A stretch of DNA of 49,909 nucleotides from a virus. Shown one piece after another: positions 610 to 5,092 of the stretch. How positions within the stretch are numbered: position 1 is the first letter of the stretch; every line of letters begins with the position of its first letter. The notes beneath the pieces are model-generated. The model had not been told where the DNA came from. It was given only the letters and a program-made list of their open reading frames with translations, and ran no database searches. Location: the IMG/VR virus record IMGVR_UViG_3300028837_003833, positions 1 to 49,909 of that record. One strand, 5' to 3'. The position numbers and the translations under genes were made by a program.

Positions 610-1467
610 CTAACGAGTATTATTAAAACGATATATTAGACCTCTTTGACGAGCCTCTCGTACAACAGTGATAAGACTCTTCAAATCAAACTTATGATCA
701 TTACCACTCAAACAAATACCCGCAGTAATAACCATGCGTTTATTATCCTTAGAAATATGGCTGATAAACTCTTCACCATCAACCCTATAAGTTACACTGT
801 AATGATCACTACGCTCAGTAAATCGAACAAATCTTCCTCCAGCATGCTCAACATCACTTTTAAGAATGCTCTCTTTTTTATTTTCGAAAAATATTTTATC
901 AAATCCTGTTCGAAGCGTGTATGCAAGTTTTTCTTCAAAAGTAAGATCCTGATATTTAATTCTTTTAGGATCAACAAATTTTTCCAAACTCGTTCTGAGA
1001 TAATCTGATTTCATGGGATTATTAGCCATATCAACACTCTCAAACCATAAATTAACCCCATCATACCGAGTAAGCACACGATCAAAATTAAGTACGGTGT
1101 CATCAAAGAGTAATACAGGAAGCAGTTCATTAGGAGGAAGCTGATACTTATTATTTTTATCGGGTACAGCAAGAAAAACTTTGTCCTGTTTAAATGCCAA
1201 AGTTAGTCTTAACTTTCCAAGACATTTTAAATATTTTTCTCGCTCAAAGATATCAGCCCCACCAACAATCATAGCTCTTTTATAGTCGATTGGGCGAATT
1301 TTATACCATCCAGGATTAACTTTTTTTATTTTAAATTTATAAATTAGTCCATCGATAGTAGTCATTACAGTGTCATTGTAGAAAACAGGAGAAATAAACT
1401 CAAGATCAGTGATCTTTTGTTCCTTCTCTCCAATTTCTTCAATAATGTTTAAAACATCAAGACCCAT
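610..1467 (-). CDS. Conserved hypothetical protein downstream of the TROVE/vWA gene (about 285 aa)
   Basis: The track start at 1566 overlaps the upstream gene. A better start is ATG 1467 (MGLDVL...) with a GGAGAG RBS. The C-terminal motif AGICLSGNDHKFDLKSL resembles, from memory, proteins encoded next to this vWA family in bacteria. Confidence 0.75.
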   Translation of the reverse strand: MGLDVLNIIEEIGEKEQKITDLEFISPVFYNDTVMTTIDGLIYKFKIKKVNPGWYKIRPIDYKRAMIVGGADIFEREKYLKCLGKLRLTLAFKQDKVFLAVPDKNNKYQLPPNELLPVLLFDDTVLNFDRVLTRYDGVNLWFESVDMANNPMKSDYLRTSLEKFVDPKRIKYQDLTFEEKLAYTLRTGFDKIFFENKKESILKSDVEHAGGRFVRFTERSDHYSVTYRVDGEEFISHISKDNKRMVITAGICLSGNDHKFDLKSLITVVREARQRGLIYRFNNTR

Positions 1468-1513: not shown

Positions 1514-3088
1514 TTATCGGAAATCTCCACGAGTAATAAGTGGAGTATCCATGATCTCATAAACAAGATCTAATTTTGAAGTTTTTGCAAGAAGAGGTAT
1601 CAATCCAGGTAATGAATAATAATCATTACCTGCAGGAGTATACATGTCATACTCAATCCCCGCTTTTTTCAAACTCTGAGAAAAAGTATTTTCAGGATAA
1701 CCTACATGAATAATCACAACATTTGGACGAACATTAAACTTCTGAACATATGTCTCATATACCCGAAAGAAAAAAGGATTGGAATTCTCACCCTCATCGG
1801 TAATTACTACAATGCTCTCTACAACTTTATTTTTCTTCATAAGATAGTCAAGAGCACACCCCATAGAAGTACTTCCACCAGGACGAACAGCTTTAAAAGC
1901 ATTCTCCCAGTCAGTTAAAGTACGACCCTTAGGTACTATTTCCATAGGCATAATATCAAATGCTATCACACTCAAATCGGCTACCGTAGCTCCAGAAATA
2001 AGTGATGCTACACTCTTACCTACCTTAATAGCCTCATGCATAGAACCTGACCGGTCAACAAACACTGCCGTAGGTTCGGTAATAACTCCGCTTTTCTTAA
2101 CCTGTGAATCAGCAACCCTATCCAGCTGCTTCAGAGTCTCTTCATCTTTAATACGACCAGTCTTAGCAGCAGTCTTTGATTTAAGAGTGGAAACATTTTT
2201 AGATTTCTCAGCCCTCTTAAGCTTCTCCTGGATCAATGCTTTAGTTTTATCATTCTTCATAGCACCCTTCTCTTCAAGAGATGCCATGTTATTAATAACC
2301 TCCATAGGTGACATACTATTAATAAGTGCTACTAATATTGAAGGAGTAATCTTTTCAACTAATCCAACAGCAACAGTATAGGGGATCTTATTCTCCACAA
2401 TTAATTTAGCTGCTTTGACAGGGCTTGCTTTCGCAATCTCTTCAAGAACATTCAGCTTTGAACCTTCAGGGATCTTCTTATCGAAAAGAATTGCCTGAGC
2501 TCGATCACTACGAGGAAAACTTCTCTTACCATCAACAAAGTATAAAGCCTTAAGATCTGCACCATTTTTAAGTACTACAGCATCAAAACGCTCAGGATCA
2601 GACTCCAACCACTTAAGATATTTAAAGACATCTGATTTAAAAGAAGTTGGGATATTAGCTTTTAATCCCACCTGTTTCTCTGAAATAGTTACCTCATCAA
2701 CCTTCTTACCCTTCTTACCAGTACTGATCTTATTACCAGTTTTAGTACGAATCTTAACCTTTTTACCCTTGATAAATCCAAGAATTTTAGCTTTCATAAA
2801 GACAGCATGTTTCCGGAAAAGAGCAAGACCTACCTCACGATTATCAATAAAAGGATCAGTGATCAACATAGCTGTGAACACCTCATTATGATCGCGGATT
2901 TCACCTTTCTTCAAATACCAGCATGCAAGATGTGAATAGAATAAAGGATCTTGCTCACGTATTTCTGCGTGAATTTTTTTTAAAGAGTCCGTGTCCCGGT
3001 GAGGGCAAGTCATAAAAGAATTCAATATCCTAACCCGGATATCCTCCTCAGCTGCAGGAGTTGCCAAAGTAGTTGCACGACGAGTCAT
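1514..3088 (-). CDS. Ro60/TROVE-like RNA-binding protein with C-terminal vWA domain (524 aa)
   Basis: C-terminal vWA: AVFVDRSGSM (MIDAS DxSxS), GGSTSMG, IVVITDEGEN. The N-terminal region is Lys-rich and predicted helical, with 'EQDPLFYSHLACW...IRD' and 'MSPMEVINNMASL', similar to TROVE segments (DPxF..LA.Y.R; M....LLRNL..L). GGAGG RBS. Confidence 0.75.
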   Translation of the reverse strand: MTRRATTLATPAAEEDIRVRILNSFMTCPHRDTDSLKKIHAEIREQDPLFYSHLACWYLKKGEIRDHNEVFTAMLITDPFIDNREVGLALFRKHAVFMKAKILGFIKGKKVKIRTKTGNKISTGKKGKKVDEVTISEKQVGLKANIPTSFKSDVFKYLKWLESDPERFDAVVLKNGADLKALYFVDGKRSFPRSDRAQAILFDKKIPEGSKLNVLEEIAKASPVKAAKLIVENKIPYTVAVGLVEKITPSILVALINSMSPMEVINNMASLEEKGAMKNDKTKALIQEKLKRAEKSKNVSTLKSKTAAKTGRIKDEETLKQLDRVADSQVKKSGVITEPTAVFVDRSGSMHEAIKVGKSVASLISGATVADLSVIAFDIMPMEIVPKGRTLTDWENAFKAVRPGGSTSMGCALDYLMKKNKVVESIVVITDEGENSNPFFFRVYETYVQKFNVRPNVVIIHVGYPENTFSQSLKKAGIEYDMYTPAGNDYYSLPGLIPLLAKTSKLDLVYEIMDTPLITRGDFR

Positions 3089-3152: not shown

Positions 3153-3407
3153 TTATCCAAATACAGTATCCGCTCTTACTGTGATGTTTCCGTTTTTGTT
3201 GATTTCGACCTTATGATCTGAAAACTCACCTACACCAACATCATAATGCTGAGCTAAAGCCATTACAATTTGATCCTGACTAACTGTAGATGGTGTTGGA
3301 GTCGTACCCTCAACTATACCGAGTTGCTGATATCGCTCTACAGGGAACAAATCTTCAAAAACAAAATCATCAGTATTTCCTCTAAACATTACATGTACGT
3401 CTGACAT
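3153..3407 (-). CDS. Small ubiquitin-like (beta-grasp) candidate protein, 84 aa, ending ...VRADTVFG
   Basis: ATG at 3407 with a GGAAGG RBS. Pattern of strand (VHVMFRG), strand, helix (QDQIVMALAQHY), strands and a terminal Gly fits a beta-grasp fold. The fold is inferred. Confidence 0.55.
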   Translation of the reverse strand: MSDVHVMFRGNTDDFVFEDLFPVERYQQLGIVEGTTPTPSTVSQDQIVMALAQHYDVGVGEFSDHKVEINKNGNITVRADTVFG

Positions 3408-3815: not shown

Positions 3816-3854
3816 AAATAAAAAACCTCGACAAAATTTTTAGTTCTATCGAGG
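3816..3854 (-). terminator. Rho-independent terminator closing the ncRNA array
   Basis: Minus strand CCTCGATAGAA-(7 nt)-TTTTGTCGAGG, an 11 bp stem whose two G-U pairs form only on the minus strand, followed by TTTTTTATTT. Confidence 0.8.
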
Positions 3855-3875
3855 CTTCATCTCAAGTCATTTTTA

Positions 3876-3977
3876 GAGAGTCAGTATTAGATAGAACACT
3901 CCTTAATCCACAGTACTGGATTACCTTGCGGCATCCTCGTACTTTTTTCTAATGTTGTTATAATAAAATACTGTCTC
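3876..3977 (-). ncRNA. Array unit E: degenerate scaffold with non-tRNA insert
   Basis: Closing stem GAGACAGTATT / AATACTG(AC)TCTC, inner helix TATAACA/TGTTCTA with one mismatch, ACATT retained before the insert, internal hairpins. Lacks the GAC seen in the other four units. Confidence 0.45.
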
Positions 3978-4023: not shown

Positions 4024-4164
4024 AAAAACTACGCATAAGTCGCAAGTGCTAATTTTTGGCATCAAATGAAGGACTTGAACCTCCGACTTATTTCTTTGCA
4101 AGAAATCGTCCTACCACTGGACGAATTTGATAATGTAAGCATCTACAGTAATTGCGTAGTTTTT
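4024..4164 (-). ncRNA. Array unit D: scaffold enclosing a complete tRNA-Cys(GCA)
   Basis: Perfect 12 bp closing stem (aaaaactacgca 4024-4035 / tgcgtagttttt 4153-4164). The 22-nt flanks 4035-4056 and 4132-4153 are identical to those of unit B. Confidence 0.85.
4057..4131 (-). tRNA. tRNA-Cys(GCA)-like gene with encoded CCA, nested in array unit D
   Basis: Acceptor ATCAAAT/ATTTGAT, D arm GTCC-AGTGGTA-GGAC, anticodon arm ATTTC-TT GCA AA-GAAAT, T arm GGAGG-TTCAAGT-CCTTC, then G-CCA. The discriminator is G, not the U73 typical of tRNA-Cys. Confidence 0.8.
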
Positions 4165-4188
4165 ATTCATATTAAAAAAAGCAAAAAA

Positions 4189-4308
4189 GGTTTTTATCAA
4201 GGTCTTTCGTACTTTTCGGAACAGCTCTCTACCCCCCATGGGTAGCGCCATTCCGGATTTTATTGATTCCGCATCAAAATGTAAGTCCGATAGGTAAGGA
4301 TAAAAACC
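4189..4308 (-). ncRNA. Array unit C: scaffold enclosing a non-tRNA two-hairpin insert
   Basis: 10 bp closing stem ggtttttatc/gataaaaacc. Scaffold CUUAC-CUAUCGGACU-UACAUU ... AGUACGAAAG-ACCUU. Insert hairpins TTGAT/ATCAA and CGGAATGGC..CTACCC-ATGG-GGGTAG..GCTGTTCCG. Confidence 0.75.
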
Positions 4309-4322
4309 CTATAAATTTATGT

Positions 4323-4461
4323 AAAAAGCTGGTATAAGTCGCAAGTGCTAATTTTGTGCGATTACGAGGGTTTGAACCTCGAAAAGCGAGAACCAGAATC
4401 TCGTGCCTTATCCGATTAGGCGATAATCAATGTAAGCATCTACAGTAATTACCAGCTTTTT
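4323..4461 (-). ncRNA. Array unit B: scaffold enclosing a tRNA-Gln(CTG)-like module with eroded acceptor stem and no CCA
   Basis: 12 bp closing stem aaaaagctggta/taccagcttttt. Insert about 4356-4428: GATTA/TAATC acceptor remnant, D arm GCCT-AATCGGATA-AGGC, anticodon arm CGAGA-TT CTG GT-TCTCG, T arm CGAGG-TTCAAAC-CCTCG. Confidence 0.85.
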
Positions 4462-4486
4462 AATTTCAATGATCTTAATAAAAGTG

Positions 4487-4609
4487 GTTGAAATTACATA
4501 AGTCGTGTATGCTAATTTGATGGATTTGAACCACCGACCCATTCGTTATCAGCGAATTGCTCTTACCAACTGAGCTAATGTAAGCCTTCACCGTAATTGT
4601 AATTTCAAC
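4487..4609 (-). ncRNA. Array unit A: scaffold enclosing tRNA-Ile(GAT) D, anticodon and T arms with no acceptor stem
   Basis: 12 bp closing stem gttgaaattaca/tgtaatttcaac. Insert 4519-4577: TA-GCTC-AGTTGGTAA-GAGC-A-ATTCG-CT GAT AA-CGAAT-GGGTC-GGTGG-TTCAAAT-CCATC, joined directly to the scaffold. Confidence 0.85.
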
Positions 4610-4616
4610 TACATCA

Positions 4617-4645
4617 ATAATAATATATTTTTTTATAAAAAACAA
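4617..4645 (-). promoter_or_regulatory. Candidate sigma70-type promoter for the RNA array
   Basis: TTGTTT (4640-4645), 17 nt, TATTAT (4617-4622). The predicted start near 4610 coincides with the 5' end of unit A. The region is very AT-rich, so a chance match is possible. Confidence 0.4.
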
Positions 4646-4702
4646 ATACTTTTTTATAATGAGTATAAAATTATATTTAATATAGATCGTATAAAAATAT
4701 TT

Positions 4703-5092
4703 TTATTTATATTTTTTTTCTTCGATTTCCATCCCAGGAAATTTACCTTTTACTGCCCGTACAATTGCATTTTTAAGCTCTTCAACAGATCCTTCCCACC
4801 AGGAAGGTTTAGAATCTTTAAATTGACTTAATCTTTGAAGTGCTGACCTTCCATGTGTTTTGTCAGGAATAGGGTAATGATCTTTTCCGTCATTAACCTT
4901 AGGATGAGTACTTGGAAAAATAGCAGCAGGTCGATTATCTCCCGCAGGAATTTTCTTAGCCATTTTTTCAAAAGTATTAGAAATTACATCAAGTTCTTCA
5001 GCCTCTTTAAGTAATCCTTGTTTCTCTACACTACTTGCAATTTTATCAATACTATCTACTATCGAAGCTATTTTATCTTTTAATAAAAACAT
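4703..5092 (-). CDS. Hypothetical phage protein (129 aa) with DUF6582-like YPIPDKTHGRSALQR motif
   Basis: AAGGA RBS. The motif resembles the (Y/F)P(I/L)xDxxHxRxAL motif of small phage proteins; recalled, not searched. Confidence 0.65.
   Translation of the reverse strand: MFLLKDKIASIVDSIDKIASSVEKQGLLKEAEELDVISNTFEKMAKKIPAGDNRPAAIFPSTHPKVNDGKDHYPIPDKTHGRSALQRLSQFKDSKPSWWEGSVEELKNAIVRAVKGKFPGMEIEEKKYK

Follow-up and report, generated by a model that had tools for sequence, protein, structure and literature searches.

Four tandem RNA units lie upstream of a putative Ro60 gene

We analyzed the first 49.9 kb (the window) of a 135-kb virus record (IMG/VR IMGVR_UViG_3300028837_003833; G+C 33.6%). 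The record was judged only 29% complete, indicating that its source is a huge phage. On the minus strand, at 4609-4024, we found four tandem units (A, B, C and D) of 123-141 nt each, in which different inserts, three of them tRNA-like, sit in the same type of scaffold. About 1 kb downstream of this array, on the same strand, lies a 524-aa open reading frame (3088-1514) that is predicted to encode a highly diverged Ro60 protein. The features of the locus are as follows.

4487..4609, minus strand: unit A; P1 4609-4598/4498-4487, P2 4591-4583/4513-4505
Loops and junctions of unit A, minus strand: 5' loop AUUACG 4597-4592, UACAUU 4582-4577, 3' junction AAAUU 4518-4514, 3' loop GACUUA 4504-4499
4576-4519, minus strand: insert of unit A, an acceptor-less tRNA-like core; anticodon GAU 4550-4548
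4322..4462, minus strand: unit B; P1 4462-4450/4334-4322, P2 4443-4435/4349-4341, UACAUU 4434-4429
4430-4356, minus strand: insert of unit B, tRNA-like; anticodon CUG 4396-4394, G.U pairs in the acceptor, CACA in the place of NCCA
4187..4310, minus strand: unit C; 5' CUUACC, P2 strand UAUCGGACU, then UACAUU; 3' AGUACGAAA, then GACCUU
Within unit C, minus strand: insert of two hairpins, non-tRNA, on the same scaffold type as in the other units
4024..4164, minus strand: unit D; P1 4164-4153/4035-4024, P2 4146-4138/4050-4042, UACAUU 4137-4132
4131-4057, minus strand: insert of unit D, a complete tRNA-like element; anticodon GCA 4099-4097, GCCA 4060-4057
3822..3858, minus strand: terminator-like hairpin followed by a T run, at the end of the RNA array
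1514..3088, minus strand: predicted divergent Ro60 gene (TROVE ring and vWA), 524 aa, the presumed protein partner of the array
610..1467, minus strand: conserved partner gene, 285 aa, immediately downstream of the Ro60-like gene

From 5' to 3', each unit is composed of a P1 strand, the 5' loop, a P2 strand, UACAUU, the insert, an A-rich 3' junction, the second P2 strand, the 3' loop and the second P1 strand. The closing stem P1 is ~12 bp long and differs in sequence in each unit, and P2 is a 9-bp helix whose 5' strand ends in GCU (ACU in unit C). The 5' loop is AUUACN in units A, B and D and CUUACC in unit C, and the 3' loop is GACUUA, or GACCUU in unit C. The motifs flanking the inserts occur three times each, compared with 0.09-0.25 occurrences expected by chance. 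The inserts of units A, B and D all start right after UACAUU (4577-4582, 4429-4434 and 4132-4137, respectively); in unit B, the last U of this motif can alternatively be read as tRNA nucleotide 1.

ARAGORN called three tRNA-like genes on the minus strand, Cys-GCA (4057-4131), Gln-CTG (4356-4430) and Ile-GAT (4510-4585), and the Rfam tRNA model scored units D, B and A at 61.8, 43.2 and 52.4 bits. No Rfam family besides tRNA was matched in the window, and these three units are the sole tRNA-like genes across the 135-kb record. Unit D forms a full cloverleaf, with a 7-bp acceptor (AUCAAAU/AUUUGAU) followed by G73 and CCA, under the Cys-type anticodon GCA; Cys tRNA identity requires U73. The acceptor of unit B contains 6 Watson-Crick pairs, or 7 counting U1.G72 and U7.G66, and is followed by CACA instead of NCCA. 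Unit A has no acceptor of its own: what ARAGORN and Rfam aligned as one is scaffold sequence (CUUACAU with AAAUUAG) in which three of the seven pairs are mismatched, and its D, anticodon and T arms are intact. Thus, the 7-bp acceptor and the D, anticodon and T arms of a decoding tRNA are all present in unit D, are present in unit B with two G.U pairs, and are not all present in unit A. A first-pass annotation, made from the letters alone, had described the three inserts in these terms, had placed them all immediately after UACAUU and had proposed the ARAGORN check; base-by-base inspection agreed with it on each of these points, including the GCCA at 4057-4060.

The downstream gene is predicted to encode a diverged Ro60

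A Pfam search of the 524-aa protein did not match TROVE (PF05731) and returned only a weak match to VWA_2. Its AlphaFold (AF2) model, built with 36 homologs, had a predicted local distance difference test (pLDDT) score of 84. In a Foldseek search of this model against the PDB, the top 13 matches were all Ro60/TROVE chains, aligned over the full length (E 2e-11 to 8e-9; template modeling (TM) score ~0.6), and the Ro60 matches included the human and Xenopus proteins, Deinococcus Rsr and the protein of Thermus phage phiLo. A profile search against PDB sequences gave a single match, a weak one to the phiLo TROVE protein (E 0.62), and PHROG 850, annotated as 'RNA-binding protein', matched at 1.7e-7. 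The invariant residues D345, S347, S349, T407 and D431 fit the MIDAS site of a vWA domain. The modeled fold identifies the protein as a predicted cryptic, highly diverged Ro60 with a HEAT-repeat ring and a C-terminal vWA domain. The family is large, with at least 579 protein homologs, on contigs of up to 470 kb.

The array recurs beside Ro60-like genes in related phages

Exact-pattern scans of IMG/VR returned chance or coding matches in nearly all cases and one true relative (L137), and protein homology was far more productive. The related loci comprised 14 IMG/VR loci and 9 further contigs, encoding Ro60-like proteins with 29-89% identity to the window protein. Arrays of 1-6 units on the same scaffold were found in ~20 of the 23 loci, at most ~4 kb from the gene and nearly always on the same strand; the motif-and-pairing finder gave two doubtful, likely false, matches in 271 kb (both strands of this genome). 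The published criterion for a Y RNA is a position on the same strand within 4 kb of Ro60 (PMC4201824), and the window array and those of the ~20 related loci share this arrangement. The array is thus linked to genes for the Ro60 fold, and also to the 285-aa gene.

In the closest relative (L159), in which the Ro60-like protein is 89% identical, the units follow the order A, B, C, D as in the window, and the array is 92% identical. The A-, C- and D-type units of L161, L163, L164, L165, L166, L167 and L145 are, where present, in the same relative order, and B-type units were found only in L163 and L166 among these relatives.

Ordinary-looking tRNA arrays precede the Ro60-like gene in two distant relatives (L155, 700-2090; L156, 230-3940), and in L155 ordinary-looking tRNA genes are interleaved with units that bear the scaffold.

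The handle is a structured RNA

The conserved part of the scaffold, which we call the handle, consists of P1, an internal loop (5' UWAC, 3' RACUY), the 9-bp P2 and a UACA(UU) junction. The first 37 units were found without using P2, so that its pairing is an independent test in these units. We found that 279 of 333 cells paired, compared with 197 ± 7 when partner strands were swapped between units. RNAalifold on 19 aligned whole-tRNA units recovered P1, P2 and the four tRNA stems. In this alignment, 93.7% of the cells pair, versus 67.6% after shuffling (with none of 500 shuffles as high as observed) and no more than 44% when partners are slid, and compensatory changes occur in 33 of 40 pairs. 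RNAfold on single units B, C and D gave the same architecture. These results demonstrate that the scaffold forms a genuine RNA structure and that its covariation is strong.

Insert classes appear stable across lineages

Across the loci, the inserts (heads) fall into five classes: whole tRNA, acceptor-less tRNA, circularly permuted tRNA-like, T arm plus long hairpin, and non-tRNA folds. CCA follows the discriminator in 17 of the 19 whole-tRNA heads. In the acceptor-less heads the D arm is invariant and the anticodon stem covaries, and the permuted heads run in the order T arm, closed acceptor hairpin, D arm and anticodon arm. Pairing in the D, anticodon and T stems is 94-100% over 19 whole-tRNA and 12 acceptor-less units (from ~15 phages), with many compensatory changes, so the heads are under purifying selection for shape. 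This agrees with the earlier suggestion of a non-translational, tRNA-mimic role.

The first-pass annotation had arranged the inserts as a series from full through eroded to acceptor-less. We found that A-type units have no acceptor, either in the eight close relatives or in distant phages, and that acceptor and NCCA are both retained by the D-type units of all nine. In L163 and L166, the B-type unit terminates in ACCA and UCCA, respectively, so that the missing CCA of unit B is a lineage-specific loss confined to the lineage of the window and L159. The acceptor-less and the full (NCCA) types appear to be separate, old and stable classes, whose carriers have Ro60-like proteins that are 30-89% identical. 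Stable classes do not support A, B and D as stages of decay, and only the missing CCA of unit B is a local loss.

The P2 and inner scaffold of unit D are identical to those of unit B in the window and L159 only, and the D-type units of the other relatives have a different P2. This identity in a single lineage is the trace expected of recombination or gene conversion within conserved flanks.

The anticodon triplet varies among orthologous units

On one shared body, the orthologous D units carry the anticodons GCA (window), CUU (the 89%-identical relative), AUC, UAU, UAC, UCA, UCC, UCA and AUC. The anticodons of the B-type units are CUG, CUG, CUU and AUC. Pairwise differences were as follows.

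D-type positions 34-36: 0.71
Rest of the D-type units, average: 0.25
UACAUU junction: 0.00
NCCA: 0.10
Positions 37-38: 0.11
Fourfold-degenerate sites of the adjacent Ro60 gene: 0.28-0.61

The orthologous units keep the acceptor, D, T and anticodon stems, U33 and A37. In a test for faster-than-neutral change, 6 of 21 loop positions of units A, B and D differ from L159, compared with 0.28 at fourfold sites. Unit D alone differs from its L159 ortholog at 4 of 7 loop positions versus 6 of 135 positions elsewhere (p = 4e-4), which is an excess relative to the constrained rest of the RNA. The comparison shows that the triplet is unconstrained or possibly diversifying, positive selection not being proven, and that the loop frame and all stems are constrained. 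Turnover of the anticodon in related arrays, which the first-pass annotation had proposed to look for, was therefore found among the D-type orthologs. Its view that both the elbow and the anticodon are under selection holds for the D, anticodon and T stems but not for the anticodon itself, which differs between orthologous units at an approximately neutral rate. In a decoding tRNA the anticodon is conserved among orthologs and matched to the body; that of the D-type units varies on a body with G73. Drift of the triplet at about the neutral rate, with different triplets in orthologs, argues against ordinary decoding.

Two D-type heads carry the anticodon UCA, which would read UGA (L161, 2895-3035; L167, 1186-1324). 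The A-type unit of L159 (1399-1519) has a 6-nt anticodon loop, CUUAAA, where that of the window is CUGAUAA, and a working anticodon loop seems dispensable in this unit.

A Y-RNA-like reading of the array and its alternatives

We favor, with a probability of roughly 0.78, the reading that the inserts are effector modules of four Y-RNA-like noncoding RNAs, which the huge phage would make for its own diverged Ro60 to display as tRNA mimics. By analogy with Y RNAs, the constant handle would dock on Ro60, and the variable head would be a tRNA or tRNA mimic belonging to one of the stable classes. Unit D would represent the whole-tRNA class with NCCA, unit B the same class after loss of the CCA, unit C a non-tRNA fold, and unit A the acceptor-less class, in which the handle would directly bear the elbow and anticodon arm. 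The heads keep tRNA shape and not tRNA identity, which suggests that the particle is addressed to tRNA-binding proteins, presenting a tRNA shape to them rather than supplying decoding tRNAs. Candidate targets include RNase P and enzymes of modification or repair; anticodon nucleases of the host are a possible further target. RNase P would probably nick the whole-tRNA heads after the U at -1, as in Mycobacterium smegmatis YrlA (PMC4201824).

Several observations weigh against this reading. The canonical Ro60-binding motif GNCGAAN0-1G was found near the 5' end in none of the 37 units. The Rfam YrlA model (RF02553; gathering threshold 69 bits) did not match the window units even at E 10. Whole-tRNA heads strongly conserve NCCA, which fits a genuine tRNA 3' end as well as it fits mimicry. 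Finally, the association of the array with Ro60 is drawn from conserved gene neighborhood and from analogy.

A further, tentative proposal concerns the variable triplet, which may possibly act as a fast-evolving specificity element, retuned in each phage lineage toward an anticodon-reading host factor, or toward a complementary tRNA anticodon, that it would bait, block or recruit; hypothetically, such a host factor could be the anticodon nuclease of a defense system. The array would then constitute a programmable, Ro60-protected set of decoys or adaptors.

Among the alternatives, the one that survives best, though we consider it unlikely, is that the units are tRNA expression cassettes. P1 and P2 would serve RNase III, RNase P or RNase E as processing stems, freeing functional tRNAs at least from the D- and B-type units, and Ro60 would act in quality control or be unrelated. 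In favor of this are unit D, a complete cloverleaf with GCCA at 61.8 bits, and the CCA of 17 of 19 whole-tRNA units. The U at -1 and the A-rich 3' trailer would suit RNase P and RNase E, and huge phages commonly carry tRNA genes. However, at least seven anticodons occur on one body in close relatives, and the acceptor and discriminator do not change along with them. In the alignment, units assigned to Leu by their anticodon show no more than a short variable region, the A34 anticodons AUU, AAU and AUC occur, and G73 is found where Cys identity needs U73. The same scaffold also holds acceptor-less, permuted and non-tRNA inserts, none of which can yield a tRNA.

Less probable still is the model of the first-pass annotation, in which tRNA genes were captured at a fixed scaffold site and then lost the aminoacylation end stepwise, from D through B to A. 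The bodies of units A, B and D resemble different tRNA families and hence probably come from different tRNA genes in the distant past, but when the array was compared by blastn with 50,697 phage records, the core of unit A alone gave a match, to generic tRNA-Ile/Thr at 82-84%, so that no donor tRNA can be named, and no capture mechanism was shown. The fixed insertion point is expected from exchange within conserved flanks, and the inner scaffold that unit D shares with unit B in one lineage points to exchange at the borders of scaffold and module. Unit B lacks a CCA that its orthologs keep, as the model would predict; on the other hand, each of the two classes keeps its place in the arrays of 8-9 close relatives and is seen again in distant phages, and no series of partly decayed acceptor intermediates was observed.

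That the inserts are functionless, decayed tRNA pseudogenes beside chance repeats, as the absence of the CCA in unit B and of the acceptor stem in unit A might suggest, is contradicted by the conservation data, since the array is 92% identical to that of L159 at a neutral-site divergence of 28% and every helix shows compensatory changes, and we give this explanation almost no credence.

Comparison with known Y RNAs and other tRNA-shaped RNAs

Ro60 and Y RNAs are already known, in phages as well (PMC4201824, PMC12135203, PMC7824862), and so is the tRNA mimicry of YrlA. We found no paper on this handle, on such arrays, on non-permuted whole tRNAs on a Ro60 handle, or on free anticodons.

The proposed Y-RNA-like RNAs most resemble the YrlA-type Y RNAs of Ro60/Rsr systems (RF02553; PMC4201824), which are small RNAs encoded a few kb from Ro60 on the same strand, several per locus, and which have an end-to-end terminal stem and a tRNA-like module with D and T arms. 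In four related loci, the permuted heads gave sub-threshold YrlA matches (24.7-31.3 bits, best E 0.007), which tie the handle to the Y RNAs. In contrast to YrlA, the handle described here lacks GNCGAA and has the UWAC/RACUY loop, P2 and UACA. The window heads are in normal gene order with an anticodon arm, and unit D has a complete acceptor and an encoded CCA. An array here comprises 3-6 units. The Ro60-like protein is also too diverged for Pfam TROVE. The absence of GNCGAA means that the handle differs from that of YrlA, and we do not claim membership of the YrlA family.

The YrlA of M. smegmatis is cleaved by RNase P and receives CCA (PMC4201824). It is thus a Y RNA with a tRNA-like head that carries a 7-bp acceptor plus a CCA end and that tRNA enzymes recognize, as might be the case for the whole-tRNA heads. 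There, the closed acceptor hairpin is opened by RNase P and the CCA is added later, whereas in the present units the acceptor, as read from the sequence, opens toward the handle, and an internally encoded CCA precedes an A-rich strand.

Thermus phage phiLo likewise encodes a Ro60 with Y-like RNAs, Yrl1 and Yrl2, just upstream (PMC12135203; PDB 9KOP, 9L5Y), but these are two RNAs with a CGAA motif and no tRNA, in contrast to the modular array described here. The phage T5 tRNA that acts against PARIS (commentary PMC11455837) is another tRNA-shaped phage RNA for which the anticodon loop matters in host conflict. T5-type anti-nuclease tRNAs are free and functional, whereas here the tRNA shape is tied to a putative Ro60 handle and a link to nucleases is hypothetical. 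Dictyostelid Class I RNAs (PMC7919456) have a similar architecture, with a short end-joining stem, a conserved 11-nt motif beside its 5' strand and a variable remainder, but they are eukaryotic, 42-65 nt long and without a tRNA head, and the window was not matched by the Rfam Class I RNA model, even with E values of up to 10 allowed.

Conservation of Ro60/Y-RNA particles extends from bacteria to humans. This phage family provides a natural series of whole, acceptor-less, permuted and non-tRNA heads on one handle, and the combination of free triplets with a kept tRNA shape makes it possible to ask directly to which tRNA-binding proteins the particle is addressed. For annotation, such 'tRNA genes' would be taken for decoding capacity of the phage, with apparent suppressors (UCA in relatives) among them, although they are probably non-decoding, and the Ro60-like gene is invisible to Pfam.

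Neighboring genes and other features

The 285-aa gene followed the Ro60-like gene in all 19 related loci checked (19/19). The AF2 model of its product had a pLDDT of 84 and gave weak fold matches (best E 2.8e-4, TM ~0.2) to multi-OB/S1/CSD RNA-binding proteins, e.g., exosome cap subunits, RNase II and S1. We regard these matches as a hint of tandem OB/S1-type RNA-binding domains and not as an assignment, and they do not favor an E2-like protein. Pfam and PHROGs searches of the small neighboring genes gave no match. In L160, a close relative, a gene with a weak Prok-JAB match (4354-4788) is found downstream of the Ro60-like gene, a few genes away, and may bear on a candidate ubiquitin-like gene of 84 aa in the window (3153-3407).

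The minus strand of the window contains a fifth element that is conserved and structured (3876-3977), located between unit D and the terminator. It folds into a long irregular hairpin (z -2.8) without the UACA/RACUY handle and can be aligned with L159, L163 and L164. In L147, a HEARO (IscB-type omega) RNA is located just upstream of the Y-like array (2109-2294, plus strand; 90.2 bits, above the Rfam threshold).

On the minus strand of L137, which is the same contig as L145, two 25-nt copies of a CRISPR-repeat-like sequence, GTCGCTGAAAAGCG[T/C]GGATTGAAAC, flank a C-type unit (~3580-3556 and 3398-3374), and L159 contains an insertion after unit D with GGATTGAAAT-like words. These CRISPR-repeat-like words may reflect hijacked Cas6-type processing or an RNA anti-CRISPR.
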